Shown piece after piece: positions 22,516-63,037 of a stretch of 64,000 bases of DNA. The DNA comes from Mobula hypostoma (Eukaryota), in assembly GCF_963921235.1 (NCBI RefSeq), contig NC_086108.1:48734001-48798000 (forward strand), read 5' to 3'. The notes beneath the pieces were generated by a model that had not been told where the DNA came from, searched no databases, and was given only the letters and a program-made list of their open reading frames with translations. A program made the position numbers and the translations under genes. Within the stretch, counting starts at the first letter, position 1; each line of letters opens with the position of its first letter.

Positions 22516-22832
22516 ATCTGCTCCAAGCTCTGACAAAAGATCATTGATTTGTAACATTTTTTCCTCCAGTCCAATGCAGCTTAGTATAACTATTTCCAGC
22601 ATATTCTTGCTTTTATGCTAGATTCCAGCAGAAACATTTGAAAAACTGGAGTCATCTTTCAGAATATGTCCAAAGTACCAATTAAATATACAAACGTTTG
22701 TAGAAGAAATTCTTCTCTGTGTGGAACGCAGAGATAAAACTGATACAAACACAGACACAGAGGTGTAAGGAAGCAACACACAAAGTTGCTGGTGAACACA
22801 GCAGGCCAGGCAGCATCTCTAGGAAGAGGTAC

Positions 22833-22868
22833 AGTCGACGTTTCGGGCCGAGACCCTTCGTCAGGACT
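22833..22868 (-). ncRNA. Minimal type-I hammerhead ribozyme (PLE pLTR), sense to TPR pre-mRNA
   Basis: AGUC-CUGACGA-A-GGGU(CUCG)GCCC-GAAA-CG-UC|GACU: core, stem I (AGUC/GACU), stem II and palindromic mini stem III (ACGU) are all intact. Confidence 0.85.
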
Positions 22869-23262
22869 AACTGAAGGAAGAGCTAGTAAGAGATTTGAAA
22901 GTGGGAGGGGGAGGGAGAGATCCAAAATGATAGGAGAAGACAGGAGGGGGAGGGATGGAGCCAAGAGCTGGACAGTTGATTGGCAAAAGGAATATGAGAG
23001 GATCATGGGACAGGAGGCCCAGGGAGAAAGAAAAGGGGGAGAGGGGGAAAAATCCCAGAGGATGGGCAAGGGGGTATAGTGAGAGGGACAGAGGGAGAAA
23101 AAGGAGAGAGAGAGAGAAAGAATGTGTGTATATAAATAAATAACGGATGGGGTACGATGGGGAGGTGGGGCATCAGCGGAAGTTTGAGAAGCTTCTCCTA
23201 TCATTTTGGATCTCCCCTTCCCCCTCCCACTTTCAAATCTCTTACTAGCTCTTCTTTCAGTT

Positions 23263-23298
23263 AGTCCTGACGAAGGGTCTCGGCCCGAAACGTCGACT
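23263..23298 (+). ncRNA. Minimal hammerhead ribozyme (PLE pLTR)
   Basis: agtcCTGACGAagggtctcggcccGAAAcGTCgact, intact. Confidence 0.85.
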
Positions 23299-23481
23299 GT
23301 ACCTCTTCCTAGAGATGCTGCCTGGCCTGCTGCGTTCACCAGCAACTTTGATGTGTGTTGCTTGAATTTCCAGCATCTGCATAATTCCTCATGTTTGTGG
23401 TGTAAGGAAAGCAACTTTTCAACTGGTTTGAGGTGTTTACAGATTAACAACCAACAAGTCATCAGCAATTAAACAACTTAC

Positions 23482-23708
23482 TGCGAAGAAGTTTGTTCCT
23501 GCTCTTCCTTTTCCTGTTTTTCAGCAAGTTCACGAACAGTCACCAGTAGTTGTTGATTTTGTTGTTGCAGTTCCTCAACACTACGATAGGTCACCAGGTG
23601 CTGAGAAATTACCTCAGAGGAACTGCTTATGTTGGCAGAACTAACTTCATCTTCACGTAAAATATGATTTCCTCGTGCATCTTCCAGCTCCATCAGAAGA
23701 ATTCTATT
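23482..23708 (-). CDS. TPR: TPR exon 14 (227 nt)
   Basis: [55 protein letters not shown]...EQTSS; CAG/GTAAGT. Confidence 0.96.
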
Positions 23709-24102
23709 CTGAATCACGAGCACAAACATATCCACGTCAGATGAGAAGCAATGGCACATGGATATAACTGCTCCATTAGATCTAAGTAAATTAAATTTTC
23801 AAACATACAAAAGCTCATCTAATGCACAGCAATAGGCCATTCAGCAGATGAAAGAAAGTATATTCTCTTCCTAACAACACTAGGTGTACCTACATTTCAG
23901 GAACGTCAGCAGTTCAAGAAGGCAGCTCATCACCACCTTCTCAAGGGCAACTAGCAATGGGCAATGAACGCTAGCTTAGCTGGTGACACCCGCATCCCGT
24001 AAGTGAATTTTTTAAAATTTAGAGCTGTAGACACCGTAGCAGCTGTAGCTGCTTTGACTTACTGGCATGACAATAAAATGTAACATAATGCTAAATACTA
24101 AC

Positions 24103-24210
24103 CTGCTGTGAAAGATCTGACACTTGCATTTTGTATCTCTGGTTCTCTCTACTAAGCAATGACGCTTGCTTATTCGCTTCATCAGTACATTTTTGTAAAC
24201 GTCGAATTTC
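24103..24210 (-). CDS. TPR: TPR exon 13 (108 nt)
   Basis: EIRRLQKCTDEANKQASLLSRENQRYKMQVSDLSQQ; TAG/GTTAGT. Confidence 0.94.
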
Positions 24211-24872: not shown

Positions 24873-24934
24873 CTGTGGAAACATTAAGCAAGCATTTTAT
24901 TTCATCGAAATTACACTTATACATTCTTATTCCA

Positions 24935-27561: not shown

Positions 27562-27645
27562 CTATCATACAAAATACACCACCAGTTGGTACATAACAAG
27601 ACATATTTACTGTTACTAAATATGTTTTTGTATCTACTCAGGCAC

Positions 27646-27786
27646 CTCTAAGCTTTGTAGTTGAAAGCAGATGGTTAGCATTTTCCAGTTCCTTTTCCAA
27701 TTTGATAATCTTTTCATTTAGTTCAGCAACTGCTTTGGTTTTGGAGGTCTCTGTCTCAATCAGACGATCTTCGGTTACTTTATGAG
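27646..27786 (-). CDS. TPR: TPR exon 10 (141 nt)
   Basis: [50 protein letters not shown] acceptor, weak donor AG/GTGCCT. Confidence 0.9.
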
Positions 27787-27897
27787 CTAGAACAAGTATC
27801 AAGCAAGTTAATTTTACAAGGAACTTAAACCAAAAACATCTACACCGAAAGCAACTCGAACCAAAAAAGAATACACAGATGTTTGAAATGAATATAC

Positions 27898-27985
27898 CTT
27901 CATTTGCCTGTTTTAGTAGACTATGAAGCTCCTCGACAGCTCTGGTGAGTTCAGTTGCTTTAGTTTCAGAATCATCAGCTGCACC
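27898..27985 (-). CDS. TPR: TPR exon 9 (88 nt)
   Basis: [38 protein letters not shown]. Confidence 0.95.
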
Positions 27986-28929
27986 CTGCAAAGGTTGAAG
28001 GCTTGGTATTTACTACACAACATTCACTGGTGGTTTATCTTAAAATCCAATCACTAGAGGTCAAATGAATGTTCTTAAAAGAGAGCCAGGTCCATCAATA
28101 TTACTAAAAAATGCAAAATTATCAAGTCATATTGATGTGGACCTTGCAGGTACTCAAAAAGATTAGCAAAAGCATGGAACTGTCAAGAGACAAAAAAATC
28201 CAAAACATGGCAGATGACACAAAGAAGTGTGTAAAATACAAGCAAGAATGTTGTAATAGCATCAAAACAGCACATTAAAGTTAATGGAACAAACAGGCTT
28301 GTGCTAATAGAGAAGTATGAAGTTAGACATGGCAGTGATAGAGATCCATACAGGCAACACCCAAGTTCATTATTCAGGTTATGCAAATTCACTTCTATGA
28401 ATTCACCCAACATTGCACAAAAATTTGAGTTATGGAATAAAATGAATTCTCACGGAAATCATGTGAGGAAAATAATTCAATAACCACAAAAAGTGAAAGA
28501 AACGATACATTTTGTCCCTTTTTATTTTTCGTCACTCATACAGTGGAGAATTAAGATCTGGATACGATATGCCCTGTTCAGTCAAAGAATATGTGAATAG
28601 ATGTCTCGGACTACAGCAATGCACAGTACCTGCGAGTCATTTTCTGTGACCCGCTGCTTTGCAGGAGCCTCAGTAGCCACATCCAGCTCTTGGACCTACT
28701 CCTTTACATAATCCCTCGAGCTACTTCACAACAACTGAGGCATCTCATTTTAAACCATTACCATGCTGAACATCTATACTACCCTTCTCCCATGAACCCT
28801 GCTGCTTTCATTCATGCTTCCTAAACCAATTCCTAGTCCATATCAATACACACACACACCCCCGCACGAAGAGCAGGTTAATATATAAGATGTCCCAACA
28901 TTAAAATCTGTTTAAAATCTAAGACAGAT

Positions 28930-30401: not shown

Positions 30402-30867
30402 CTGTAGAAGGTAACAGTTAAAAATCAACAACCGGGTTAGTCAGTGCCAGAGAATCAAATGTGAATGCGTTCAGAGAGGTTTCACAGGTGAAAGTAAGAA
30501 GAAAAGCATTAAGTGGCAGACTCCCTTCAAGTCTGCATGTGATACATTAAAACCTAGTAATTGTGCTGAGTTTGAGTGTTGTAGATTTAATTTCTAGCTT
30601 TCAAATTAAATAAACCCTTCCATCAAGTTCAGATAAAAAATAGTAAAATGGACTGTTTTAAATTCGTTCTTTCTTTTTAAAATTGTATTTATGTTTTTTT
30701 TCTTCTGAATGTATTATATGTCTGTGATGCTGCTTCAATTAAGCTTGATTACACATGCATATACATGCACATACGATAATAAACTCAACTTTGTCTTGAA
30801 CCTTTGGGTTGCTGAGAAAGATAGAAATGTTATTGTTTGTATTCACCAAGCAAAAAGGACAGATTAC

Positions 30868-31032
30868 CTCGTCTTTCTTGTTCTCCAGATTGCATCGGAG
30901 CTCGAGAATTTCATTGCTTTTTTCTCGACGAAGTCCGACAAGTTCATCCGTCTTTGTTTTTATTTCTGTATTCAACCAACTGTTCTGATTCATTAATAAT
31001 TCTTTTTCTTGTTCCAGACGCTTTTCACGATA
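30868..31032 (-). CDS. TPR: TPR exon 6 (165 nt)
   Basis: [64 protein letters not shown]. Confidence 0.96.
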
Positions 31033-31461
31033 CTGCAAAAAAATTGGTTTACCAATCACAGAATCATTCCCATTGAAGGTAAGCCCACTGGACAGAGTGC
31101 TCCAGAATTTAGATCTAACGATGATGAAATGGCAATATACATCCTAGCCTTGAGGTAGAACTTGCATGGGGTGTTCCATGCACTTGCTACTTATTCTCCT
31201 TCAAAGTAGAGGTCACATGCTTGGAAGGAGTAGTTGGACTATTCTGCAGAACATTTAGGGTAGTGGATAGGTTGTCAGTTCAGCAATCTTTGTCCCAGAT
31301 GGCAGACTTACTGGAGTAGTAATCCAGTATTCGATCCAGTCAAGTGTCTTCCATTACACTTGGAGCCACTGTATTTAACGTGACTGATCCAACAGGAAGA
31401 AATAGGCCCTCAGCACTGACTTACTAATGCCTTTCAAATTCTATTTTTCACTGTGATTACC

Positions 31462-33745: not shown

Positions 33746-33760
33746 TCATCCTTTACTAAG

Positions 33761-33836: not shown

Positions 33837-35223
33837 TTACTTAAGGTAGTCAACTAGGAAACAAACCCGGTAGCAATCTATGCCAAGCTAGTTGATCTTA
33901 AGGGAGTGAAAGGGTGGAAATTAAATGTGCACACTTCAACTGTTTACATAATTTGTGGTTCTTTCTTTCTCTTGCACATCAGATGTTGGTCATTTATTTT
34001 TTTTTCTTTAATTGGGTTCTTTTGGGTTTCTTGCTTTGTGGCTACCGGTAAACAAACAAATCTCAAAATTGTATAATTTATAGTCTTTTTTAATAAATGC
34101 ACTTTGAATTTGAACATTGTTCAGTGATAAATGCCAGATGTTATATTTATGATACAAATCAAGAGATGGCAGTCAAAGTACTGCATTGTTTATGGCTCTT
34201 AGAACTACACAAAATATTTTAAAATTGTTTTCATAGATGGGAAGAGTTACAGTATGTTAAAGAGGAAAGCTATGGAATGACAATATGTTAAAGGAAATTA
34301 TGCCTTCCCATTACAAGGTGTCACCAATGACATTTCCTAAACTTGCTGATCATACAAGGCAATTTTTTCTCAACGTTTTCACTTTTGCTCCTCACAATCA
34401 AAATTCACACCTATGCATCCAGTTTTCATGTTGAGCAAATTTTATAAGGTACTTCAATTTGTGCAACATACTCAATTTACTTTCTTAAATTTGAAGTCCC
34501 CTATCTGCGAAAATTAACTACGAATTCTCCAGAGGTCAAAAAATGTTAGATATATATTAATTATTCCCACATAACTTGATTCCCATCAAATACAAATACT
34601 CAATACCCTACTACACATAGAATACAAAATTAACTACAATTATAGAGAGCTTACAGTAAGTGCTAAGTACAAATGTTGAAATTACACATTATTCTTTGTC
34701 CAATTTCTGTTCTTTAACAAATCAACTTGACTTCAGGAAGCAGGCAGCACACATGCTCCAATCTACAATGATGTTGAGGTCAAGAGGATTGAGACCTTCA
34801 ATTTCAGAGTAAACATCAATAGCCCCTTTCCAATATTTTTTCTCTTCTTTTCCGCTCATCTTCCCTCTTCTTCTATTCCCCTCTCTAGCCTCTTAGCCTA
34901 CTCACCTACCCCATCACCTCCCTCTGGTGCCCCTCCTCCTTCTCTTTCTCCCATGATCCACTCTTCTCTCCTATCAGAATCCTTCTCCTCCAGCCCTTTG
35001 CCTTTTCTTCCCCCCCCGCCCCCCCCATCTATAACCTTCCAATTTCATCTCCCCTCTCCACCCACCTGGCATCACCTATTACCTGCTGAGATCCACTAGC
35101 ATTTTGTGCGTTGCTCAAAATATCAGTGAACCTTTCATTTGTCTACATAGCTAGAGAGGAAATCTTAACCTTAACCAAATTTCCACCACAAAACATCTTT
35201 CCCACCCAACAGAAACACACACA

Positions 35224-35839
35224 ACTTCATCAGGACTGGAAAGGAAGGGGAAAGAAGTCAGATGAAGGAGGTGGGAGGAGGGGAGGAAGAAGCACAAGGT
35301 GATAGGTGAAACCAGGAGAGGCGGGTAAGGATTGGCAAAGAGCTGGGAAGTTGGTGAAAAGATAAAGGACTGGAGGAGGGGGAGATCTGATAGGAGGATA
35401 GAAGACCATGGAAGAAAGTGAAGAGGGAGAAGCATCAGAGGGAGGTGTTGGGCAGTAAAGGAGACAACATAAGAGGGGGAAAACAGAAATGGGGAATGGT
35501 GGGGGGGGGGGGGGCAATCACCGGAAGTTCAAGAAATTGATGTTCATACCATCAGGTTGGTGGCTACCCAGACAGAACAAAAGATGCTGCTCCTCCAACC
35601 CAAGTGTGGCCTCATCGTGGCAGTAGAGGCGTCCATGGACTAACATATTGGAATGGGAATGGAAAGTAGAATTGAAATGGGTGGCCACTGGGAAATCCCA
35701 CTCTTTGTAGCAGATGGAGCAAAGGCACCCAACGAAGTGGTCTCTCAATCTATGTCAGGTCTCACGGATATACAGGAAGCCAGACTGAGACCACTGGATA
35801 CAATAGATGACCCCAACAGACACACAGGTGAAGTGCAGC
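35224..35839 (-). mobile_element. Penelope-like element fragment (GIY-YIG C-terminus plus pLTR truncated within the hammerhead)
   Basis: FPVATHFNSTFHSHSNMLVHGRLYCHDEATLGLEEQHLLFCLGSHQPDGMNINFLNFR. Confidence 0.85.
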
Positions 35840-36529
35840 TTTCCCACCCCTTATACTTGTTTTATTTATTATTCTAGTTTTTGACCTAAGGTTGCCAAGA
35901 GGGTAACATCATATTTTACACATGACCATTTTTCCTCAATGCTCCCTTACACTTTCATTGCATCTCATTACATAATACAAAATCTGAAACAAAATCTAAA
36001 CATGTAAACACGAGAAATTCTGCTGGAAATGTTGTGCTCCAGTAAATAATCCCAAATATAACTAATGAACTTAGTGTTTCATCAATTTCATCTACCTTCT
36101 CTTGCAAGCAGACTAATCTAACCATGCCACGACGACCTATTTTCTTATTAATAATCTACAAATTTTATTGGGAGAAGATGTGTGCAATCACTCCAATTAG
36201 TGATGTTTGTTGTCTCTTTCTATCTCTGTCCAAACTAGAACTAAACTTGTTCAGAGGCAAGATCATTCCTCACAACTGCTTATATCATCTGCATTTACCA
36301 AAGTCACTATTCCCAACTCCATTTCAGTTTTCTGTCTTTCACAAGAGCTTTCAAGAAGAAACAGGTACATATGCAGATGAGATGTAAAGTTAACTGATAA
36401 ACAACTGTGCACATCATATGCATTAGAATTGTTTTAAAAACTCAGAATTAAACTAGGTACATCTTTCAGAAAGATAGTGTCCTTAAGTACAAAGTGAAGC
36501 TAAATTTCAATTGAAGGTACTCATCATAC

Positions 36530-43725: not shown

Positions 43726-44004
43726 CCCCTCTATTACAAGAGTCATGCTTGAAAAAAGTTGCTGGGTGAGGTTTTCAGCTGCGAGTCATTGATGATGAAT
43801 TACAGAATGGATTGCAAATGGACTTGGAATTTCTTTTTTTATAAATGCCACTGAACCAGCATGGCAACCTATCATATATGGTGCCATGTGTTGCACAAGA
43901 AACCATGTTCCTAACTGGAGTACTTTTATCCTCAATATACATTTTGAGTTCTTGGTAGATTGATCCTCTATTGATACGTTTTCAAGAGAATCTCTTCATA
44001 AGCT

Positions 44005-44444
44005 TCAAACAAGACAAAATCTGCAGATCCTGAAAACCTGAGCAACACATACAAAATGCTGGAGGAATTCAGCCGGCCAGGCAGCATCTATGGAAAAAAG
44101 TACAGTCGATTTTTCAGGCCAAAACCTCTCGGTAGGACTGGAGAAAAAAAGCTGAGTAGATTTAAAAGGTGGGGGGCAATGCCCCCAAAACCCCCTTCTC
44201 CATTACCCATCCCCTTTTCCCATCTCACCAATCAACTTCCCAGCTCTTTACTTCATCCCTCCCCCTCCAAGTTTTATCTATCACCTGGTGGTTCTCTCTA
44301 CCCTCCCCCCACCTTTTAAATTACTCCTCAGCTTTTTTTTTCTCCAGTCTTGCCAAAGGGTTTCGGTCCGAAATGTCAACTATACTTTTCTCCCATAGAT
44401 GCTGCCTGGCCTGCTGAGTTCCTCCAGCATTTTCTGTGTGTTGG
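44005..44444. mobile_element. Older fold-back Penelope-like insertion with two decayed hammerheads
   Basis: Minus-strand pLTR tail followed by a plus-strand pLTR; TSD TCTTCATAA at 43993-44001 and 44445-44453. Confidence 0.8.
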
Positions 44445-45188
44445 TCTTCATAAACATTTCCATTTTTGATAAACCATACGTATTGCATTAGCAATGCCTC
44501 GTTGTCTCACAATTGACTCATCCAGTGGAATTGAAAATTACGATGACATGGATTCAGATTGGAATCTGAACGTTAGTGCGATAGAGCTGTGGTTCAGCAA
44601 GCTACCTTTATTCTATTCCAGTTAGTGTGATAGACCAATCACCAAAGGTCTCATAATAATCAGAGCTGGTACGTGACAGCATATACGAAGCCAAGGCCGC
44701 TCTGAACACCTCAGGGTCGGCAGGTTCACTGATTTGCTGTATTTCACCATTTGGTTCCAGCCAGCGCCGTACCATTGCGAGGCATGTTTCCCGTAGAACT
44801 GTAGAGAAAGTTGAGGGGGTGTATTTGACTTAATGTTAAATTGCGTGAACTTGTTCTGTGCTGCAAGCCAAGGGGAACTGTTGAGCACCAGGTTGCTAAT
44901 TTATGCATCCCTAATATATGTTTGGTTGGTAAGGTCTGATGAGATTGCTGATCTTCACATGCATTGTGACGACAAGTGCTTACCGCCTGCAGAGCTATGG
45001 ATCTTCCTGTGTTCCAGTCCCTCATACTTATTTTTGGTAGTGCCTGCCCTACTAACAGCCTCATGTTAGGGTGGCGCTTACCATCCCCTCCCCCCCCCCA
45101 AAGAATCGTGGAATGCCCCCCCGATAACTTCTATTTCCCCTAACGCCCCTTCAGGACAGATAACCGCCTCCATTGGGCATCAATGACA

Positions 45189-46530
45189 AAGCAACACACA
45201 CAGAACACTGGAGGAACTCAGGCAGCATTGATGAAAATGAATAAACAGCTGACATCTTGGGCCAAGACCCTTCATCAGAACTGGGAAAGAAGGGGAATGA
45301 TGCCAGAATAAAACACTGAGGGGAGGGAGAAGGATGACAAGCTGGAAGGTGATAGGTGAAGTCAGGTGGGTGGGAAAAGTAAAAGGATGAAGAAGGATCT
45401 GATAGGAGAGAAGAGTAGATCATGGGAGAAAGGGAAGAAAGAGGGGCACCAGGGGTGGGGTGGATGGGGTGGTAGGCAGGTGAGGAGAAGAGGTCAGAGG
45501 CAAGAGGCTAAAGTGGGGAAAAGAAGAAGGACGAGGGGGGAGGGGAAAGGAAGAGGAAATATTATCTATTGGAGAAATCAATGTTCATAACATCAGGTTG
45601 GAGGCTACTTTGACAGAATATGTGCTATTGCTCCTCCACCCTCAGAGTGGCCTCATCATGGCAGAAAAGGAAGCCATGAATCAGCATGTCAGAATGGGAA
45701 TGGGGATAGGAATTACAATGGTTAGCCACAGAGAACTTCCACTTTTGGCAAATAGAGCAGAGGTGCTTGACAAATTAATCCTCCAATTTACAGTGGGTCT
45801 CACCTATGTAGAGAAGGACTGTTTGAGGCCCTGAATGGAGGGAGGAGGAAGGTGGATGAGCAGGTGTAGCATTCACCTCACTTTCTGGGATAAGTGTGCC
45901 AGGAGAGAGATTAGTGGGATGGGACTAATGGACAAAGGAATCACAGAGAGAACAATCCCTACAGAGTTGGGGCAGAGGGGGTGCAGGAGAAGTAAAGATG
46001 TGGTTAGGGGTAGGATCCCATTGAAGGTGGCAGAAGTTGCAAAGAACATGCTGGATGTGGAGACTCATGGAGACTCATGGTAGGTGAGGACTAAAGGAAC
46101 TCTATCCCTGTTAAGGTAGTAGAAAGAAGGGGTGATCACAGATGTCCAGGAAATGGGGGAGACGTGAATAAGGGCAGTATCAATGGTGGAGGAAGGAAAA
46201 CTCCGTTCTTTGGAGGAGGACATCTTTGATGTCCTAGAAAAGTAGGTCTCGTCCTGGGAACAGGTGCCATGGAGATGAGGGAACTGAGAAAAGGGAACAG
46301 CATTTTTTACAGGAGACAGGGTGGGAAGCGGTATAGCCAAGATAGCCACAGGAATCAATAGATTGAGAAAAACATGTCAGTAAACAGTTTTTCTCCAGAG
46401 TTGGAAACAGTGAGGTTGAGAAAGGGGAGAGAAGTATCAAAAATGGACTAAGTGAATTTAAGGACAGGGTGGAAGTTGGAGGCAGCTGATGAAATTAACA
46501 AGCTCAGCATGGGTGCAAGAAGCAGCAACA
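45189..46530 (-). mobile_element. Old Penelope-like element (RT C-terminus, GIY-YIG, pLTR with decayed hammerhead)
   Basis: KNAVPFSQFPHLHGTCSQDETYFSRTSKMSS...RVPLVLTYH, homologous to 56618-58031. Confidence 0.85.
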
Positions 46531-48260
46531 ATGCAGTCCTCAATGTAATGCAGAATTTTAATGGAGAGCATTACTGTGGGAGGCTTGGACTGTTCTGCAT
46601 AGGCTAGCTAACAGAGTATTGCAGCTCCATTTAAAATTGACCAAGAATGACACAGTATTTATTTTCCCTGTATTTTGACTTGTACGGTTAAGCTTGTGAG
46701 CTTTTCCATTGAAAAGCAATGAAGAATAACACTAATTCAATTTGTTTTGGACAATAAACTTTGATTGAATGCTGTCATGTGAATTGGACAGAGCAATCTA
46801 AACTTTCATAATGAAGAATGCAATATATAACTTTCCATTAACGTGACATGTAGCATACGAAACCCTAAAGAGTGAAGCAAGTAGATTACAGCCGTTATCT
46901 GTAAAAGATTACAATTTGTAAAATGCATTTATATAATTTATTTTAAATTTATGTCCTCTTCAGACAGGTTTCCCTTCTATATTATTTTGTAAACTTTGCC
47001 TTAATGTTAACATGGGAAGGGCAATTCTTATTCTCTAAACTAATGTTTCGTCTCCTCATTTGCACCTTTTGCTTGAAGCAGCAGCTTATTTGGGACAAAT
47101 TTTAAAGAACATCTTAATCGATAAAATAGCCAAGACTCCTTTCGTTTCTATGCCGCATAATTGGGACAGGAGATAGTTGCCAAACACTTAACTAGTGCCA
47201 ATCGTATGCATTTATGTGGCTGCTAGACACAACAACATACTTAGAATGAACAGTTTTTAAAATAGAGTCACTTGTGTGTGCTTGTGTTTAAAAAGCAGTG
47301 ATTTTTGTCAGTGATAGTTGGGGAGAAATAGTGAACTGTTTAGTTCTTTCCAGTTTCAAGCATTCAGGCTTGAAGATGCCAAAAATAGTTAGGAGTGAAA
47401 ATGAAATGATTTCACTAGTTCAAAAAGTTAGGAATTACAAAGAATTTGAAGATATCAACAATTATTTTGAATGTTACAATGAAAATGAAGATTTGGAGTA
47501 TACAATCATCGAAAACTTTGTTTGAAGGCAGCCCATTATCTGTACTAGGTGTCTACACTGATTTTGTTCATTTACTGCCAATCAAAAGAATACTGCACCA
47601 TTATAAATTCCTCCATTGATAATTATTAGGAATGAATACAGTTTTACAGTAGAGGTATTGGCAGCATTCTAATTTTGTTCTGTATTCCATTTAAAAATAC
47701 AAATTGCACTTAGTTAAATGGTAGTTTGTCTTTCTTTAAATATTTCCATGACTCTTCAGCTAATAGGGGCAGCTGCTTAGTTCAGCCAAAATATACTGGT
47801 CCCTATGTGTCCCAATTAAGCTGCAATTAACCTTTAATTCAATAGTTTCTATCAGTCTATATACAATACACATAACATTTGGTCAAAAAAGTTCAACCTT
47901 TAAAAAAATTGCATACAGTTCATATTATTATTCATTCCACTTCATTAAAAAATACTATTGTAATCAACTCAAGTTAAATTTATGGAATTTACTTGCCACT
48001 GATTGTTATTAACTTTTGAAAAGCAACCTTAAACCTATGCTCTCTGGTATGACATTTCAAAAAAAGGACTTACCTGTGTCTCATAATTTTTTATACTTGC
48101 ATCAGTCATACCTTTGCTCCAACAAAAACAATGAGTATCTGAGTTTGTCCAACCTCTCCTTACAGGTGAAACTCTCCAATCCATACAACATACTGGTGAA
48201 ACTCACACACTCCTTCCAAATGGCCTCACTAAAAATCCATACAGCTGCAATGACTTCATT

Positions 48261-48805
48261 AGTGGAAATTTGAGAAGTCAATGTTCATGCCATCAGGTTG
48301 GAGGTTACCCAGACAGAATATAAGGTATTGTTCCTCCAACCTGAGTGTGGCTACATCTTCTCAAACTTCCGCTAATGCCCCACCTCCCCCCGTACCCTAT
48401 CCATTATTTATTTATATACACACACATTCTTTTTCTCTCTCCTTTTTCTCCCTCTGTCCCTCTCACTATACCCCTTGCCCATCCTCTGGATTCCCCCCTC
48501 CCCCTTTCTTTCTCCCTTGGCCTCCTGTCCCATGATCCTCTCATATCCCTTTTGCCAATCAACTGTCCAGCTCTTGGCTCCATCCCTCCCCCTCCTGTCT
48601 TCTCCTATCATTTCGGATCTCCCCCTCCCCCTTTCAGATCTCTTACTAGCTCCTCTTTCAGTTAGTCCTGACGAAGGGTCTCAGCCAAAAACATCAACTG
48701 TACCTCTTCCTAGAGATGCTGCCTGGCCTGCTGCGTTCACCAGCAACTTTTATGTGTGTTGCTTGAAATTCCAGCATCTGCAGATTTCCTCGTGTTTGCA
48801 GTTTT
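48261..48805. mobile_element. Penelope-like fragment with a short inverted 5' segment
   Basis: Minus-strand ORF-end piece (48261-48358) joined to a plus-strand pLTR; decayed hammerhead at ~48664-48699; no clear TSD. Confidence 0.8.
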
Positions 48806-52487: not shown

Positions 52488-52758
52488 GTTACCATCTGCG
52501 CCGACAACCAGCCCGCCGCCCGCCACGTCAGGGACGTCACTTACGATGCGCCACAGGCGCCTCTTGTGAATCAGGCCTACGCAAGTCAGCGCGTATTTCC
52601 CTTGGGGAGCTACAAATGTAATCCGGAAAATGCAGGCAATACCACCTCCCTGCAAGATTTTCTTACACACACGCAATGCAGGGAGCTGTTCACGGTCATC
52701 AACCGTGGTCAGAATCTTCCACACATTACATTGTACTTTTGTGTCCTCCCCCCACTGA

Positions 52759-52771
52759 ACTACAATTCCCA
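52759..52771 (+). promoter_or_regulatory. ZNF143/THAP11 (SBS) motif ACTACAATTCCCA
   Basis: Exact match to the ACTACAnnTCCCA promoter motif, about 270 bp upstream of the TPR ATG. Confidence 0.75.
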
Positions 52772-53016
52772 ACAGCCGTCGCGCAGCCGGTTGAGCTCGC
52801 GCTTCGGCTGTCGCGTCCGTGCTCAGGAATGCGGAAAAACACCGGCCCATGATCTATCCCGATGGCCGCCTCCAATTTTAATGAACGTCTTCGGGGCAGA
52901 TGAGATAGACCTCGCAATAGAATAACTGTTGGCAGCTATGGTCAAACAGATGAGTCCACTTCTGTAAATAATGAGTAAAGGTGGTGCTCAGTTCTTAAAA
53001 TTAAATTTACACTTAG

Positions 53017-54206
53017 GCTTTTCATTCTAGGACGAGAGAGATGTCTTCCTTTTTTAAAGAAAGGGGCTTCCCTTCCTCCACTATCAACTCTGCTCTTAAA
53101 CGCATCTCCTCCATTTCACGTACATCTGCTCTCACTCCATCCTCCCGCCACCCCACTAGGAATAGGGTTCCCCTGGTCCTCACCTACCACCCCACCAGCC
53201 TCTGGGTCCAACATATTATTCTCCGTAACTTCCGCCACCTCCAACGGGATCCCACCACTAAGCACATCTTTCCCTCCCCCCCCCGCTTTCCGCAGGGATC
53301 GCTCCCTACACAACTCCCTTGTCCATTCGTCCCCCCCCCATCCCTCCCCACTGATCTCCCTCCTGGCACTTATCCGTGTAAGCGGAACAAGTGCTACACA
53401 TGCCCTTACACTTCCTCCCTTACCACCATTCAGGGCCCCAAACAGTCCTTCCAGTTGAGGCAACACTTCACCTGTGAGTCGACTGGGGTGATATACTGCG
53501 TCCCGTGCTCCCGATGTGGCCTTTTATATATTGGCGAGACCCGACGCAGACTGGGAGACCGCTTTGCTGAACAATCTATGCTCTGTCCGCCAGAGAAAGC
53601 AGGATCTCCCAGTGGCCACACATTTTAATTCCACATCCCATTCCCATTCTGACATGTCTATCCACGGCCTCCTCTACTGTAAAGATGAAGCCACACTCAG
53701 GTTGGAGGAACAACACCTTATATTCCGTCTGGGTAGCCTCCAACCTGATGGCATGAACATCGACTTCTCTAACTTCCGCTAGGCCCCACCTCCCCCTCGT
53801 ACCCCATCTGTTACTTGTTTTTATGCACACATTCTTTCTCTCACTCTCCTTTTTCTCCCTCTGTCCCTCTGAATATACCCCTTGCCCATCCTCTGGGTCC
53901 CCCCCCCGCTTGTCTTTCTTCCCGGACCTCCTGTCCCATGATCCTCTCGTATCCCTTTTGCCTATCACCTGTCCAGCTCTTGGCTCTATCCCTCCCCCTC
54001 CTGTCTTCTCCTATCATTTTGGATCTCCCCCTCCCCCTCCAACTTTCAAATCCCTTACTCACTCTTCCTTCAGTTAGTCCTGATGAAGGGTCTCGGCCTG
54101 AAACGTCGACTGCACCTCTTCCTACAGATGCTGCCTGGCCTGCTGCGTTCACCAGCAACTTTGATGTGTGTTGCTTGAATTTCCAGCATCTGCAGAATTC
54201 CTGTTG
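53017..54206 (+). mobile_element. Young 5'-truncated Penelope-like element (linker, Zn-finger, GIY-YIG, pLTR with hammerhead)
   Basis: CKRNKCYTC and GVIYCVPCSRCGLLYIGETRRRLGDRFAE; 11-bp TSD TTTACACTTAG at 53006-53016 and 54207-54217. Confidence 0.95.
54076..54111 (+). ncRNA. Minimal hammerhead ribozyme (PLE pLTR)
   Basis: agtcCTGATGAagggtctcggcctGAAAcGTCgact; G-U pair at base of stem II. Confidence 0.8.
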
Positions 54207-54551
54207 TTTACACTTAGATTGTTTTCTTTAAAGTAAGAAAACATTAATTCCCCTTGTACATTAAATTACATCATGAGAAGTGATAATATGTATAAAATTA
54301 ACAAATTGGTTATGTGCAGACCTACACACGATTGTTTTGACTTGTCAATGACATTAATGATTTGGATGAGACTGTAGTTGGCATAGCAAGCAAATTTACA
54401 GATGATACCAAAGATGGTGGTGTGGAGGACAGTGAAGAAAATTGTCTGAGACAGCAACAGGATTTAATCAACTGGGAAAATAGGCCAAGATGTGGCAGGA
54501 CCCTGAAGATGGTTGTAAAACCTTTCCCTGTAAAACCCAGGCAGAGTATAA

Positions 54552-55480
54552 GACCATAAGATATAGGAACAGAATTAGGCCATTTGGCCTGTCGAGTCTG
54601 CTCCATCATTTCATCATGGCTGATCCATTTTTCCTCTCAGCCCCAATCTCCTGCCTTCCCCCTGCATCAATTCATGCTCTGACCAATTAGGAATCTATCA
54701 ACCTTAAATATACATACAGACTTGGCCTTCACAGCTGCCCGTGGCAACGAATTCCACAGATTCCTTCACTCTCTGGCTAAAGAAATACTTTCTCATCTAC
54801 GTTCTAAAAGGACGCCCCGCTATTCTGTGTCTGTATCCTCCGGTCTTAGACTCATAGAAAACACCCTCTCCACTTCCACTCTATCAAGGCCTTTCAACAT
54901 TCAATAGGTTTCAATTAGGTCACCTCTCATTCTTCTGAATTCCGGTGAATACAATCCCAGAACCATCAAACGCTCTTCATGTGACAAGATGTATAATCCT
55001 GGAATCATTTTTGCGAACTTCCTTTGAACCTTCTCCGGTTTCAGCACATCCTTTCTAAGATAAGGAGCCCAAAACTGCTCACAATACTCCAAGTGAGACC
55101 TCATCACTGCTATATAAAGTCTCAACATCACATCTTTACTTCTCTATTCTAGTCCTCTTGAAATGAATGCTAACATTGCATTTGCCTTCCTCACCACAAA
55201 CTCAACCTGCAGATTAACTTTTAGGGAACCCTGCACAAGGATTCCCAAATCCCTTTGCACCCAGAATTTTGTATTTTCTCTCCATTTAGAAATGGTCTAC
55301 CCTTTCACTTCCCAACACTGTATTCCATCTGCCACTCCTTTGCCTATTCTCCTAATCAAAGTCCTTCTATTGCCACTCTACTTCCTCAAAACTACCTGCC
55401 CCTCCACCGGTCTTCATATCGTCTGCAAACTTTGCAACAGCGCCATTAATTCCAGCATCCAAATTATTGACATACACGTA
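54552..55480 (-). mobile_element. CR1-clade LINE 3' fragment nested in the older CR1
   Basis: LYIAVMRSHLEYCEQFWAPYLRKD...RMRGDLIETY. Confidence 0.85.
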
Positions 55481-56054
55481 AAAATATTTGCAGAACAGAA
55501 ATAAGTGCATAATCCCTGAATATGGTGACACAGTTAGATAGGGTAGTGAAGAAGTTCAAAGTGATCTCTGTCTCAGAGGCTGATGTTAGGCTGTCTTTAA
55601 ACAGGGTGAACCCTCCCAAGTCAAAAGGTCCTGATGGAGTACCTGGTAAGGCTCTGAAAACCTGTGCCAACCAACTGGTGGGAGTATTCAAGGACTTTTT
55701 CAACCTCTAATTGCTAAGGGCAGAAGTTCCCACTTGCTTCAAAAAGGCAACAGTTATACCAGTGAGTAAGAAGAATAATGTGAGCTGCCTTAATGACTAT
55801 CACCTGGTAGCACTCACATCTACAGTGATGAAATGCTTTGAGAAGTTGGTCATGACTAGACTGAACTCCTGTCTCAGCAAGGACCTAGACCCATTGCAGT
55901 TTGCCTATCGCCACAATAGGTCAACGACAGATGCAATCTCAATGGCTCTTCACACGGCTTCAGACCACTGGACAACACAAACACCTACGTCAAGATGCTC
56001 ATAAAAGTTGCTGGTGAACACAGCAGGCCAGGCAGCATCTCTAGGAAGAGGTAC

Positions 56055-56090
56055 AGTCGACGTTTCGGGCCCAGACCCTTCATCAGGACT
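56055..56090 (-). ncRNA. Minimal hammerhead ribozyme (inverted pLTR)
   Basis: agtcCTGATGAagggtctgggcccGAAAcGTCgact on minus strand. Confidence 0.8.
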
Positions 56091-56617
56091 AACTGAAGGA
56101 AGAGTTAGTAAGAGATTTGAAAGTGGGAGGGGGAGGAGATCCGAAATGATAGGAGAAGACAGGAGGGGGAGGGATGGAGCCAAGAGCTGGACAGTTGATT
56201 GGCAAAAGGGATATGAGAGGATCATGGGACAGGAGGCCCAGGGAGAAAGAAAGGGGAAGGGGGGAAGCCCAGAGGATGGGCAAGGGGTATAGTGAGAGGG
56301 ACAGAGGGAGAAAAAGGAGAGAGAGAAAAAGAATGTGTGTATATAAATAAATGAATAACGGGTGATGCCTACACTGAAGGAAGCCTCTTCCAGTGATGCC
56401 TACACTGAAGAAGTTTAAATCTTCTCTTCGACGAGAGTTCAGTGAAACCATCTCTCACTGCTCCCCATCTGTAATTTCTTTGGCTCTTCAACTTTTTGAC
56501 CACATTTTGACTCAGACTCGCTATCACAGCCATATATCCTTTCTTGGAAACCTCACCTCCCCCTCGTACCCCATGTGTTATTTAATTATTTATATACACA
56601 CATTCTTTTTCTCTCTC

Positions 56618-58031
56618 GTTGACTTTATTAACTTTGCCTCCAACTTTCACCCTGCCCTCAAGTTTACCTGGTCCATTTCCGACACCTCCCTCCCCTTTCT
56701 AGATCTTTCTGTCTCTGTCTCTGGAGACAGCTTATCCACTGATGTCTACTATAAGCCTACTGACTCTCACAGCTATCTGGACTATTCCTCTTCTCACCCT
56801 GTCTCTTGTAAAAACGCCATCCCCTTCTCGCAATTCCTCCGTCTCCGCCGCATCTGCTCTCAGGATGAGGCTTTTCATTCCAGGACGAGGGAGATGTCTT
56901 CCTTTTTTAAAGAAAGGGGCTTCCCTTCCTCCACTATCAACTCTGCTCTTAAACTCATCTCCCCCATTTCATGTACATCTGCTCTCACTCCATCCTCCCG
57001 CCACCCCACTAGGAATAGGGTTCCCCTGGTCCTCACCTACCACCCCACCAGCCTCCGGGTCCAACATATTATTCTCCGTAACTTCCGCCACCTCCAACGG
57101 GATCCCACCACTAAGCACATCTTTCCCTCCCCCCCCCCTGCATTCCGCAGGGATCGCTCCCTACACAACTCCCTTGTCCATTCGTCTCCCCCATCCCTTC
57201 CCACTGATCTCCCTCCTGGCACTTATCCGTGTAAGCGGAACAAGTGCTACACATGCCCTTACACTTCCTCCCTTACCACCATTCAGGGCCCCAAACAGTC
57301 CTTCCAGTTGAGGCAACACTTCACCTGTGAGTCGACTGGGGTGATATACTGCGTCCGGTGCTCCTGATGTGGCCTTTTATATATTGGTGAGACCCGACGC
57401 AGACTGGGAGACCGCTTTGCTGAACACCTACGCTCTGTCCACCAGAGAAAGCAGGATCTTCCAGTGGCCACACATTTTAATTCCACATCCCATTCCCATT
57501 CTGACATGTCTATCCACGGCCTCCTCTACTGTAAAGATGAAGCCACACTCAGGTTGGAGGAACAACACCTTATATTCCGTCTGGGTAGCCTCCAACCTGA
57601 TGGCATGAACATCGACTTCTCTAACTTCCGCTAAGGCCCCACCTCCCCCTCGTACCCCATCTGTTACTTATTTTTATGCACACATTCTTTCTCTCACTCT
57701 CCTTTTTCTCCCTCTGTCCCTCTGAATATACCTCTTGCCCATCCTCTGGGTTCCCCCCCCCCACCTTGTCTTTATTCCCGGACCTCCTGTCCCATGATCC
57801 TCTCATATCCCCTTTTGCCTATCACCTGTCCAGCTCTTGGCTCTATCCCTCTCCCTCCTGTCTTCTCCTATCATTTTGGATCTCCCCCTCCCCCTCCAAC
57901 TTTCAAATCCCTTACTCACTCTTCCTTCAGTTAGTCCTGACGAAGGGTCTCGGCCTGAAACATCGACTGCACCTCTTCCTACAGATGCTGCTTGGCCTGC
58001 TGCGTTCACCAGCAACTTTGATGTGTGTTGC
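56618..58031 (+). mobile_element. Inner young Penelope-like element (RT C-terminus, GIY-YIG, pLTR)
   Basis: VDFINFASNFHPALKFTWSISDTSLPFLDLSV...VYYKPTDSHSYLDYSSSHP; TSD TTCTTTTTCTCTCTC at 56603-56617 and 58032-58046; highly similar to 53017-54206. Confidence 0.92.
57933..57968 (+). ncRNA. Hammerhead ribozyme copy with CpG-type decay in stem III (GAAACATC)
   Basis: agtcCTGACGAagggtctcggcctGAAAcATCgact. Confidence 0.7.
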
Positions 58032-58282
58032 TTCTTTTTCTCTCTCTCCTTTTTCTCCCTCTGTCTGTCTCCCTCACTATACTCCTTGGCCATCCTCTAG
58101 GCTTCCTCCCTCCCTGTTTTCTTCCTCCCTAGGCCTCCCATCCCATGATCCACTCATATCCCTTTTGCCAATCACCTGTCCAGCTCTTGGCTCCATCCCT
58201 CCCCCTCCTGTCTTCTCCTATCATTTTGGATCTCCCCCTCCCCCTCTCACTTTCAAATCTCTTACTAGCTCTTCCTTCAGTT

Positions 58283-58318
58283 AGTCCTGACGAAGGGTCT
58301 CGGCCCGAAACATCGAAT
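58283..58318 (+). ncRNA. Hammerhead ribozyme copy, partly decayed
   Basis: agtcCTGACGAagggtctcggcccGAAAcATCgaat; mismatches in stems III and I. Confidence 0.65.
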
Positions 58319-59529
58319 GTACCTCTTCCTAGAGATACTGCCTGGCCTGCTGCGTTCACCAGCAACTTTTATTGTGTTGCTTGAAATTCCAGCATTTGCA
58401 GATTTCCTCATGTCAAGATGCCGTTCATCAACTATAGCTCAGAATTTAATACCATCATTCCCACAATCCTAACTGAGAAGTTACAGACCTGGGCCTCTGT
58501 ACCTCCCTCTGCAATTGGATCCTTGACTTCCTAACCAGAAGACCACAATCGGTACAGATTGGTGATAGCATATCCTCCTCGCTGACGATCAACACTGATG
58601 CACCTCAGGGTGTGTGCTTAGCCTGCTGCTCTACTCTCTATATCCACATGACTGTGTGGCAAGGCATAGCTCAAATACCATCTATAAATTTGCTGATGAT
58701 ACAACCATTTTTGGTAGAATCTCAGATAGTGATGAGAGAGCATACAGGAGCAAGATATGCCAACTAGTTGAATGGCGTCACAGCAACAACCTGGCACTCA
58801 GCGTCAGTAAGATGAACGAGCTGATTGTGGACTTCAGGAAGGGTAAGACAAAGGCAGACATATCAATCCTCATAGAGGGATCAGAAGTGGAGAGAGTGAG
58901 CCATTTCAAGTTCCTGGGTGTCAAGATCTCTGAGGATCTAACCTGGTCCCAACATATCTATGCAGCTGTAAAGAAGGCAAGACAGCGTGTATACTTCATT
59001 AGGAGTTTGAAGAGATTTGGTATATCAACAAACACACTCAAAAGCTTCTATAGATGTATCATTGGAGAGCACTCAGAAAGGCTGCATCACTGTCTGGTAT
59101 GGAGGGGCTACTGCACAGGACCGAAAGAAGCTGCAGAAGGTTGTAAATTTAGTCGACTCCATCTTGGGTACTAGCCCACAAAATATCCAGAACATCTTCA
59201 AGAAGCGGTGTCTCAGAAAGGCAGCGTCCATTATTAAGAACCTCCAACACCAAGGGCATGACCTTTTCTCACTGTTACCATTGAACTGCTGCTGCTAAGT
59301 TAACAAATTTCATGACACGTGCCGGTGATAAAATTGATTCCGATTCTGATTCTAAATTTATTATTGAATTACATGTAGGTTACCATAGATTACCTAGCGA
59401 TTAAGAAGACTTTTGGCATCATTGCATTCATTGGTCAGGGCATAGATGTGGAAAGTCATATTACAACTGTACATACTTGGAGAATTGTGTGCATTTCTGG
59501 TCACCAGCTATGGGAAGGATGGCATTAGA

Positions 59530-60040
59530 GGTAGTAATGGGGGACAAGGAAATGGCGAATGAACTGAATAAGTATTTTGCATCAATCTTCACCGTGGAAG
59601 GCACTGGCAGTATGGTAGAAGTTCCAGATGTCAGTGGGTATGAAGTTACCAGAGAGTAGGTTCTTGGAAAACTGAATGGTCTGAAAGTAGATAGGTAGAA
59701 AGAGGTGGCTGAAGAGATCGTGGAGGCATTAGTAATGATCTTTCAAGAATCACAAGATTCTGGTATGAAGACTAGAAAATTGCAAATGTCACTCCACTCT
59801 TCAAGAAGGGGGAGAGTCAGAAGAAAGCAAACTATAGGCTAGTTAGTCTGATCTCAGTGGTTGGTAAGATGTTGGAGTCGATTGTTAAGGATGTGGGTTC
59901 GGGGTACTTGAAGCCACTTGATAAAGTAGGCTGTAGTTAGCATGGTTTTCTCAAGGGAAAATCTTGCTTGACAAATCTGTTGGAATTCTTTGAAGAAGTT
60001 ACAAGCAGGATAGAATTGGTTAATGTTGTGCACTTGGAAT
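59530..60040 (+). mobile_element. CR1-clade LINE internal fragment
   Basis: VMGDKEMANELNKYFASIFT and GKSCLTNLLEFFEEVT. Confidence 0.8.
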
Positions 60041-60215
60041 TTTCTGAATGGAGTTAAATACCATCACAATGAAATAATAATTAGCTGACACGTGCATATT
60101 CACAAGCGCAGTCGCCGTGTCTGCTGCGCTGCCGAATCCGTGGTTGTGACAAAAGCTCCCAACAATTAGATCTATTATTTGATATGCTGAGTGTTGCTTC
60201 CAACTGGTCTGCAAG

Positions 60216-60948
60216 TAGGGTTGCCAACTGTCCCGTATTTGCCGGGACATCCCGTATATTGGGCTAAATTGGTTTGTCCCATACGGGACCGTTCTTGTCC
60301 CGTATTTCCCCCGCTAAGGTAGAGCGTTCCTATGAAACCTTTCGTGCCGAGATGGCGTAAGGTAAAGAAGCAATTACCATTAATTTATATGGGAAAATGT
60401 TTTCGGCGTTCCCAGACCCAAAAAAATAACCTACCGAATCATACCAAATAACACATAAAACTGAAAATAACACTAACATATAGTAAAAGCAGGAATGATA
60501 TGATAAATACACAGCCTATATAAAGTAGAAACAATGTATGTACAGGTACAGTATAGTCGGGAAGATTAAGCCAAAACCGATTGGGTGGGGGGGGGGAATC
60601 GGCACGTACGCGCAGGCGCACATCACATAAGCACACGTTACGCATGCGCACACAGGTGCCCGCGCAAGGCTTCATGGTCATGGTAGTCTTTCATGGGGTA
60701 TACAGGGGTGTCGCGTATTTCGCATAAAAGTTGCTGGTGAACGCCGCAGGCCAGTCAGTATCTCTAGGAAGAGGTACAGCCCGAAACGTCGACTGTACCT
60801 CTTCCTAGAGATGCTGCTTGGCCTGCGGCGTTCACCAGCAACTTTTATGTGTGTTGCTTGAAATTCCAGTATCTGCCAGTTTCCTTGTGTCCCGTATTTG
60901 ACTGCTACTTTTGTCCCTTATTTGGGAGTAAGATAGTTGACAACCCTA
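60216..60948. mobile_element. hAT (Blackjack-like TIR) MITE containing Tigger-terminal sequence
   Basis: TAGGGTTGCCAAC...GTTGACAACCCTA; perfect 8-bp TSD TCTGCAAG at 60208-60215 and 60949-60956. Confidence 0.9.
60721..60886. mobile_element. 166-bp mini fold-back Penelope pLTR insertion
   Basis: 57-bp inverted arms 60723-60779 and 60793-60849; TSD GTGTC(G/C)CGTATTT at 60708-60720 and 60887-60899. Confidence 0.9.
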
Positions 60949-61581
60949 TCTGCAAGCTTCCTTGAACTAAGCAACTTAGTCAACTTGCCTGTTTTGAAAC
61001 AAGCTGATCATTGATTTCAGGAGAAGGAAACCAGTGGTCCATGAGCCAGTCCTCATCTGGGGATCAGATGGTGAGAGTTAGTAACTGTACTTTCCTCGGT
61101 GTTATCATTTCAGAGTACCTGTCCTGGATCCAGCACCAAAGTGCCATTATGATGGAAGCAGAGCAGTGGCTATAACTTATTTGGAATTTGCAAAGATTCA
61201 GCATGTCATCTAAAACTTTGACAAACTTATAGAGATGTATTGTGGAGAGTATATAGACTGTCACTTGCATCATGGCCTGGTATGGAAACACTAATGCCCT
61301 TGAATGGAAAAGCCTACAAAATGTATTGGATATGGCCCAGACCATCACAGGTAAAGTCCTCCCCACCACTGAGCATATCTGTACAGACTGCTGTTTCAGG
61401 AAAGCAGCATCAATCGTCACAGACCCCCACTATCCAGGCCGTGTTCTGTTCCCATTACAGGAGCTACAGGACCCACACCTCCAGGGTCAGAAACAGTTAT
61501 TACCCCTCAACCATCAGGCTCTTGACCCAGAGGGGATAACTTCACTCTCCCCATCACTGAACTGTTCACACAATCTATGGA

Positions 61582-62028
61582 AACAACAGGAATTCTGCAG
61601 ATGCTGGAAATTCAAGCAACACACATAAAAGTTGCTGGTGAACGCAGCAGGCCAGGCAGCATCTCTAGGAAGAGGTGCAGTCGACGTTTCAAATCCCTTA
61701 CTCACTCCCCTCCAACTTTCAAATCCCTTACTCACTCCCCTCCAACTTTCAAATCCCTTACTCACTCTTCCTTCAGTTAAGTACCCCTTGCCCATCCTCT
61801 GGGTCCCCCCCCCCTTTTCTTTCTCCCTGGGCCTCCTGTTCCATGATCCTTTCATATCCCTTTTGCCTATCACCTGTCCAGCTCTTGGCTCCATCCCTCC
61901 CCCTCCTGTCTTCTCCTATCATTTTGGATATCCCCCTCCCCCTCCAACTTTCAAATTCCTTACTCACTCTTCCTTCAGTTAGTCCTGACGAAGGGTCTCA
62001 GCCTGAAACGTCGACTGCACCTCTTCCT
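61582..62028. mobile_element. Fold-back Penelope pLTR insertion with a 30-bp stutter
   Basis: TSD ACACAA(T/C)CTATGGA at 61568-61581 and 62029-62042; minus arm to ~61690, 30-bp unit repeated about 3 times, then plus pLTR. Confidence 0.88.
61981..62016 (+). ncRNA. Minimal hammerhead ribozyme (PLE pLTR)
   Basis: agtcCTGACGAagggtctcagcctGAAAcGTCgact. Confidence 0.78.
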
Positions 62029-63037
62029 ACACAACCTATGGACTCGCTTTCAAGGATTCTTCATCTCATGTTCTTGATATTTATTTCTTATTAATTTATT
62101 GTTATTATATTTTTTATTTTTTTCTCAGCTCAAGCTGGTAAAAACCGAGGTATGGACATGGCCAAGCACACTCATTTCTCAATTGCTAGGAACTTTTGGA
62201 CAATTCTGGTGGCATTTAGTATCATGACTTTATGGAGATTTACTTAAATATTTCTGTATCAGCTGAATTGTTTAACGCTATTGTGTAGTGACTTTGGGAT
62301 AACACCATTTGTAAGCATTACTACAGAATTAAGAAAATGTATACTTGTTACCTGGACTATTCCTCTTCTCACCCGGTCTCTTGCAAAAATGCCATCCCCT
62401 CCTCGCAATTCCTCCGTCTCCGCCGCATCTGCTCTCAGGATGAGGCTTTTCATTTCAGGACAAAGGAGATGCCCTCCTTTTTTAAAGAAAGGGGCTCCCC
62501 TTCCTCCACCATCAACTCTGCTCTTGAACGTATCTCCCCCATTTCACCGACATCTGCTCTCACTCCATCCTCCTGCCACCCCCACTAGGAATAGGGTTCC
62601 CCTTGTCCTCACCTACCACCCCACCAGCCTCTGGGTCCAACGTATAATTCTCCATAACTTCCGCCACCTCCAACGGGATCCCACCACTAAGCACATCTTT
62701 CCCTCCCCCCCCACCCCCCGCTTTCTGTAGGGATCGCTCCCTACATGACTCCCTTGTCCATTCGTTCCCCCCCATCCCTCCCCACCAATCTCCCTCCTGG
62801 CACTTAACCTTGTAAGTGAAACAAGTGCTACACATGCCCTTACACTTCCTCCCTTACCACCATTCAGGGCCCCAAACAGTCCTTCCAGGTGAGGTGACAC
62901 TTGACCTGTGAGTCTGTCTGTCTGTGTCTTGTTTTACAGTGGTTGGCATCCAGCTTAATGATGCATTACTGCCACCTTCTGCTCTGGAATGTGCACTGGA
63001 CATATAATCTAAATCCCTTCACCCAATCTCGCTCGCG

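Follow-up and report, generated by a model that had tools for sequence, protein, structure and literature searches.

Fold-back insertions of a Neptune-type Penelope-like element in Mobula hypostoma and the possible priming of their arms from both target strands

Results

Penelope-like insertions in the window

We analyzed a stretch of 64,000 nucleotides from Mobula hypostoma (assembly GCF_963921235.1, contig NC_086108.1, positions 48,734,001 to 48,798,000), hereafter the window, which holds insertions of a Penelope-like element (PLE). A census by BLAST within the window gave 13 insertion events (Table 1): five fold-backs (E1 to E5), in which a minus-strand and a plus-strand pseudo-long terminal repeat (pLTR) are joined with their 3' ends facing outward, one older probable fold-back (O1), E6, and six uninverted copies. 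The ends of older copies were judged by eye and are less certain. Positions in the element ("rel") are counted from the GUC cleavage site of its hammerhead, +1 being the first base past the cut, with E7 as the reference (cut after 54107). The fold-back form, which an earlier note on this DNA had described as recurrent, is common but not the rule, as 6 of the 13 events are uninverted. All insertions lie in introns of, or just upstream of, a gene whose minus-strand exons (e.g., 52700-52853, 30739-31143, 27638-28009, and 23478-23798) encode a coiled-coil protein that we take to be the nucleoprotein TPR.

Judging from their sequence, the insertions are dead, 5'-truncated copies of a very abundant Neptune-type PLE. 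The longest remnant of the open reading frame (ORF) in the window, in the nested copy E3B, comprises a reverse transcriptase (RT) thumb, a Cx4CxxC linker and a GIY-YIG endonuclease (EN) with one in-frame stop. The RT fragment at 56621-57364 corresponds to about residues 465-720 of full-length RT proteins at 50-53% identity; among named proteins, it is most similar to those of rays and sharks (60-74% identity). The RT core itself lies outside the PLE sequence preserved in the window, and the assignment to PLE-type RTs comes through the matches of this fragment. The GIY-YIG motif, with two cysteines between GIY and YIG, was read in the translation; the Pfam match is weak (E 0.025, under the cut-off). 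The Cx4CxxC motif precedes the EN and fits the CX2-5CxxC zinc-finger linker of the Neptune and Nematis clades, for which a linker zinc finger between RT and EN is the stated mark (PMC8557442; papers are cited here from extracts). It is from this linker motif only that the label "Neptune-type" is taken, while the features found are those expected of an EN-bearing (EN+) PLE.

The pLTR carries a predicted hammerhead of the minimal type I; its helix III is palindromic, and its core and helices I and II were recognized by motif search and folding. The Rfam scan of the window did not detect the hammerhead, and folds of the hammerhead and tail region were not more stable than shuffles (z 0.18 to -0.82). 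The window contains no full-length pLTR-ORF-pLTR copy. The family is very abundant in sequencing runs of four organisms (4 of the 24 runs listed, where depth is not copy number), and a search with the exact pLTR motif gave 0 matches in metagenome contigs and 0 in viral contigs. A miniature inverted-repeat or terminal-inverted-repeat DNA transposon was ruled out, as the arm ends are unequal and the inner ends and duplication lengths vary. An array of non-LTR retrozymes was likewise rejected, self-BLAST of the window showing no head-to-tail tandem hammerhead units.

Structure of the fold-backs

Self-BLAST and direct reading confirmed the central claim of the earlier note, that five insertions have outward-facing pLTR 3' ends inside a single target-site duplication (TSD) of 9-14 bp. 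By comparison, a direct repeat of at least 9 bp was present in 2 of 3,000 random point pairs taken in the window with the same slack. In every arm, a target 3' end passes directly into antisense element sequence, and the outer ends show 0-3 nt of microhomology between target and element. The 3' ends cluster at +57..+70 (short) and +95..+102 (long), with two window arms outside both. As the earlier note had stated, the long tail is on exactly one arm in all five fold-backs; for one long and one short end in 5/5, p is at most 0.03 if ends are independent. Five of the uninverted copies (n=6) finish at the short site and one at the long site. As copies without inversion stop at these two sites as well, both would be start sites of first-strand synthesis. 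These end classes agree with the optional tail of EN+ PLEs, which measures 30-40 bp and is often present at one end only. We also observed that the longest tail finishes in a pyrimidine-rich run followed by CAG (48786-48802), similar to a 3' splice site, just ahead of a possible ORF start.

The arms are non-nested in E1, E2, and E5, and therefore neither arm is a simple copy of the other. Hammerhead-proximal sequence, reported in the earlier note to be present on both arms, was found as a complete core on both arms of E1 and E3 and in decayed form in E2, but not in E4 and E5.

The region 55999-58411, described in the earlier note as one fold-back, does hold a fold-back in a TSD matching at 10/10 positions, but it records two events, a younger copy (E3B) being nested inside. 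E3B has its own 15-bp duplication (56603-56617 and 58032-58046), is 96.9% identical to E7 over 1,169 bp and has subfamily-B alleles at sites where both E3 arms have A alleles. The segment 56394-56546 aligns from residue 1 of full-length relatives (E about 2e-5), so that the original E3 is made up of an inverted pLTR, the ORF start and a tailed pLTR. Its arms differ at 27 of 358 sites, one arm carrying 14 private changes and the other 3. Between the inverted arms of E3 and E1 there are only 12 differences in 354. As a separate observation, E3B sits in the same orientation as the E3 pLTR that it interrupts, and the duplicated 15 bp are a CT-rich stretch, which fits self-targeting of pLTRs.

E6, proposed in the earlier note as a sixth inverted pLTR (48261-48805), does not belong with the others: its inverted arm is the ORF end and not a pLTR tail, and no TSD above 6 bp was found. 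In L1 twin priming, the second target strand primes on the RNA, leaving an inverted 5' part inside one TSD. The arms of E6 overlap by about 17 nt only, and its layout has this L1-type geometry and not that of a pLTR fold-back.

Authenticity of the insertions

Assembly is difficult where a family with very many copies forms inverted repeats, and the fold-backs might be chimeras made in the process. We consider this extremely unlikely, since the arms are unequal in length, end point and sequence, the TSDs are present and have mutated since in E4 and E5, and the same TSD-bounded layout is found in an unrelated assembly (locus L030, see below). In-window search for empty-site paralogues of host repeats, in which the target is single, was positive for E4 and E5 (2/7 insertions tested). 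Overlay of reads from four runs on 54300-62300 (314,000-643,000 contigs per run, short pieces) gave joints skipping E3, E4, and E5, which are indistinguishable from other copies of the host repeats; among the joints listed, none was a strand switch. The fold-backs could also be two independent insertions placed back to back by PLEs that prefer their own pLTR as a target. Nested pLTR insertion does occur (E3B) and the arms of E3 are unequal, as this would allow. However, a single TSD spans both outer ends in 5/5 cases, no second duplication brackets either arm, and on inspection the two arms of each of the five belong to the same family or subfamily type, weakly so in E2 (30/134 differences within, against 38-44/134 to others). 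The random pairing of subfamilies that the earlier note had named as a counter-sign is not what we see, and independent insertion is highly improbable.

Inverted arms in distant relatives

Among relatives, we surveyed the best 80 of 464 loci with one probe family and self-BLAST; most contigs are too short for both ends, and the counts are a lower bound. At least 7 of these 80 loci (L005, L009, L030, L047, L058, L063, and L071) have an inverted pLTR or tail piece no more than about 110 bp from the 5' end of the ORF match. L030 has an 11-bp TSD and the long tail on the inverted arm; in L009 and L071 a TSD was searched for and not found. According to this in silico survey, the inverted-pLTR layout recurs in distant relatives. 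One distant Neptune-like family with its own hammerhead (L005, L007, L008, L013, L024, L027, L030, L036, L040, L047, L058, L062, and L063) has 3' ends of two classes (about +40..+71 and +111..+121), and inverted arms are frequent where its copies are 5'-truncated.

Inverted arms consisting of the tail only (about 25-35 bp) adjoin a 5'-truncated ORF at 13745-13768 of the window and at 3978-4012 of L058. Such very short second complementary DNAs (cDNAs) would escape most annotations.

Other copies and features

O1, which begins with one of these tail-only arms, was absent from the earlier note and has no convincing TSD (6 bp). For E6, O1, and O4, the TSD search gave 6 bp at best. Remnants of three older PLE copies, uninverted and from related families, lie at 34835-35117, 35220-35840, and 45185-46550, the first two standing tail to tail about 100 bp apart. 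The 266-bp break in E8 (62915-63180) holds a (CA)n tract and is probably a further nested insertion. Elsewhere, a weak match resembling a C/D-box small nucleolar RNA (1465-1515, minus strand; SNORD43, 25 bits, E 0.58, below the gathering score) is probably due to chance.

Table 1. Coordinates of the Penelope-like insertions, their parts and the related sites (rel, position relative to the hammerhead cleavage site)
Feature	Position	Strand	Details
E1 left TSD	22762..22772	+	11 bp GGTGTAAGGAA, 11/11 to 23399-23409
E1 inverted arm	22773..23191	-	rel -343..+69, short end, subfamily A, complete hammerhead core
E1 inner-junction palindrome	23186-23197		12 bp, perfect
E1 direct arm	23192..23398	+	rel -102..+102, long tail
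E1 right TSD	23399..23409	+	
E2 left TSD	43993..44001	+	9 bp, 9/9 to 44445-44453
E2 inverted arm	44002..44178	-	older family (~73% to subfamilies A/B), rel -72..+102, long tail
E2 inner junction			palindrome with 7-bp arms, 1-nt loop
E2 direct arm	44180..44444	+	rel about -181..+66, short end
E3 left TSD	55989..55998	+	10 bp, identical to 58412-58421
E3 inverted arm	55999..56362	-	rel about -298..+59, short end
E3 PLE ORF start	56363..56550	+	residues 1-51 at 56394-56546; preceded by 18-bp duplicated, partly palindromic junction
E3 direct pLTR, first part	56551..56617	+	rel -323..-261; last 15 bp are the left duplication of nested E3B
E3B nested subfamily-B copy	56618..58031	+	RT thumb, linker, GIY-YIG, pLTR, short end; uninverted
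E3 direct pLTR, remainder	58032..58411	+	long tail, ends rel about +95/+100
E4 left TSD	60709..60720	+	11/12 to 60888-60899
E4 inverted arm	60721..60779	-	rel +3..+59, short end; inner end 2 nt from cleavage site
E4 direct arm	60779..60887	+	rel -11..about +100, long tail
E4 empty-site paralogue	9675-10175		host repeat, target once
E5 left TSD	61568..61581	+	13/14 to 62029-62042
E5 inverted arm	61582..61691	-	rel -8..+102, long tail
E5 junction fill	61687..61781	+	three sense-strand copies: rel -63..-43, -73..-43, -73..-31; entry via 5-nt microhomology
E5 direct arm	61782..62028	+	rel -231..+19; 40 nt short of usual short end; 3-nt TSD microhomology
E5 empty-site paralogue	22298-22405		host repeat, target once
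E6 inverted arm	48257..48359	-	ORF end, rel -425..-326
E6 direct arm	48357..48801	+	rel -343..+102, long tail; no TSD found
E7 uninverted 5'-truncated copy	53015..54209	+	subfamily B, long tail; TSD 53006-53016 / 54207-54217
E7 putative hammerhead core	54080-54107	+	cleavage after 54107
E8 uninverted 5'-truncated copy	62349..63872	+	short end; TSD 62342-62351 / 63871-63880; broken at 62915-63180
O1 old probable fold-back	about 13745..14282	.	tail-only inverted arm 13745-13768, then ORF end and short-ended pLTR

Discussion

Origin of the two arms

From 5-6 events in one 64-kb window, we think it likely, with real room for doubt, that both staggered nicks prime first-strand cDNA at two tail-delimiting sites and that the truncated cDNAs are then end-joined. 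The GIY-YIG endonuclease would nick both strands, and the TSDs suggest a spacing of 9-14 bp. For roughly half of the insertions, first-strand synthesis on pLTR-tail RNA would then begin from each of the two target 3' ends, at the distal site (about +95..+102) from one and at the proximal site (about +57..+70) from the other. Early stops of the two cDNAs, followed by head-to-head joining through microhomology or templated end joining, would leave outward-facing 3' ends in one TSD, with the tail on a single arm. Different pLTR copies could serve for the two primings, and for E3 the simplest choice would be the upstream and downstream pLTRs of one pLTR-ORF-pLTR transcript, as in twin priming. We infer both the co-occurrence of the two primings in a single in vivo event and the way in which the cDNAs are joined.

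Priming from both target strands on pLTR tails had been proposed in the earlier note, and this part of its mechanism is the best reading of the geometry, the microhomology at outer ends, the non-nested arms, the unequal arms of E3 and the in vitro data: in PMC11167929, a PLE protein cuts and extends both strands, the two start sites coincide with the tail ends and a dimer is predicted. The pairing of one long with one short end, the twin-priming geometry of E6 and the recurrence of the layout in distant relatives such as L030 also speak for it. Two of the fold-backs bear on it directly. The long arm of E5 stops at -8 and yet is extended with sense copies of -73..-31, for which the only template is the strand of the other arm. 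The direct part of E3 reaches ORF residue 1, where the upstream pLTR would adjoin, as predicted by twin priming on a pLTR-ORF-pLTR RNA.

Several observations weigh against double priming, and some of them suggest a single priming followed by self-priming of the folded-back strand, the copy stopping before the tail and joining the target, with later internal deletions making the arms unequal. The inner junctions of E1 and E2, two of the seven, form palindromes of 6-7 bp (each expected in 3.7% of random joins, p about 0.025), and the innermost 7 nt of one E2 arm mirror the start of the other arm. The arms of E4 are nested around a 13-nt loop and share a private base at +37, which fits the snap-back of one cDNA. 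The E1 arms are near-identical, differing at just 4/167 sites, as expected from their age. Snap-back also explains directly why the tail is on one arm, and self-priming of the cDNA or of an antisense template has been proposed by Arkhipova et al. 2013 (PMC3846280). In addition, the direct arms of E5 (+19) and L030 (about -145) end outside both start sites; the start site is alike on both strands in vitro (PMC11167929), and because there is no such difference between strands, the in vitro data leave the strict long/short pairing unexplained. The subfamily signal in E3 is mixed, its arms sharing alleles at -209 and -207 against E1 and E6; gene conversion could have made these arms unequal, and arms could look non-nested if long palindromes had lost sequence later. 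Against snap-back, an extra deletion is needed in each of E1, E2, and E5, the unequal private changes of E3 (14 vs 3) are unexplained, and the copy has no reason to stop where uninverted copies also end. We therefore regard snap-back as an unlikely general explanation that may be valid for a subset; double priming and snap-back may both operate.

The other part of the mechanism in the earlier note, in which pairing of hammerheads into a dimer, or ligation of the RNA into a circle, would deliver a pLTR tail to each nick, did not hold up and appears very improbable. In its favor, the pLTR has the minimal type I hammerhead with palindromic helix III, a kind reported to need dimers, and circles have been proposed as templates (PMC4209133); two pLTR copies are needed for E3, and 3 of 10 inner ends fall within -11..+3 of the cleavage site. 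However, no outer end lies at the cut and 9/10 arms read through it, and therefore the RNA serving as template had either not been cut or been ligated again. The unequal arms of E3 cannot come from one circular monomer, and the window has no tandem pLTR array. Moreover, hammerhead mutants left insertion unchanged in vitro (PMC11167929), and Naiads without canonical hammerheads form the same tailed inverted structures (PMC8557442). Junction reads at the GUC cut, which had been suggested as a check, are uninformative on circles, because ligating two pLTR cleavage products restores the ordinary pLTR sequence. A related scheme is a programmed double first-strand reaction, in which a protein dimer would nick both strands and prime one cDNA each at the distal and proximal sites on two pLTRs kept together, possibly via helix III, producing inversion and one-sided tail in one step. 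In its full form with ribozyme pairing we give it little credence; the double priming in it is likely. As for the inner ends near the cut, e.g., 60779 and 61691 (one of them 2 nt short), RT stalling or run-off on cleaved RNA is a possible, post hoc, explanation.

The origin of the inverted pLTR and its one-sided tail was still termed undefined in papers of 2021 and 2024 (PMC8557442, PMC11167929), and in the literature searched we did not find double priming stated as the source of inverted pLTRs. Abundant short, TSD-bounded fold-backs with diagnosable subfamilies are good material for deciding between double priming and snap-back. The most informative types are cases such as E3, with arms from different pLTRs and reaching the ORF start, and E5, with a junction templated by the opposite arm.

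Comparison with known systems

The fold-back architecture is the already described typical Penelope structure, and the observation itself is not new. The earlier note was correct that inverted pLTRs are reported for Penelope but understated the record, since the single TSD and the tail on one arm are also published (PMC3846280, PMC8557442). The "typical Penelope structure" has two pLTRs and an adjacent inverted pLTR, a 9-bp TSD and an optional 31-bp tail on one inverted pLTR; palindromes at the junction were remarked and self-priming was proposed (PMC3846280). The tail is described as often at one end only and the life cycle as undefined (PMC8557442), and inverted pLTRs with short extensions are listed as curation knowledge (PMC8969392). 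The window units resemble those of EN+ Penelope elements (Pen2a_Av and relatives; PMC3846280; Craig et al. 2021, PMC8557442) in the inverted 5'-truncated pLTR, the one TSD (8-10 bp there), the 30-40 bp tail at one end, the head-to-head orientation and the palindromes at inverted junctions. They differ in that most are too truncated to keep the ORF and that TSDs reach 14 bp. In contrast to the self-priming view of Pen2a_Av-type units, the comparison of arms in the window suggests two separately primed cDNAs.

The geometry of L1 twin priming is common to E6 and E3. The earlier note had set the fold-backs apart from it on the overlap of their arms, which stands for E1, E2, E4, and E5; E6 is nearly non-overlapping and for E3 twin priming is plausible. 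Unlike in L1, the second priming in E1, E2, E4, and E5 would be at a fixed site and not at an arbitrary internal one.

Non-LTR retrozymes (bioRxiv 10.64898/2026.07.22.740005; PMC7229834) are likewise short non-coding pLTR-derived units with type I hammerheads, and hammerhead dimers and circular templates have been proposed for tandems (PMC4209133). Unlike their head-to-tail tandem arrays, the window units are head-to-head, variably truncated and, in longer copies, continuous with the ORF; the extracts of the retrozyme preprint contain nothing on inversions.

The closest biochemical parallel is with Poseidon PAc of Anolis in vitro (Frangieh et al. 2024, PMC11167929), although the extracts of that paper's text do not discuss inverted insertions. 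PAc belongs to another clade and has no linker zinc finger, and its ORF starts inside the hammerhead, whereas that of the window element would start beyond the tail, as E3 suggests. As in the window element, its 3' ends fall into two classes separated by about 35-40 nt, past the hammerhead in a stem-loop region, and both target strands can be used as primers.

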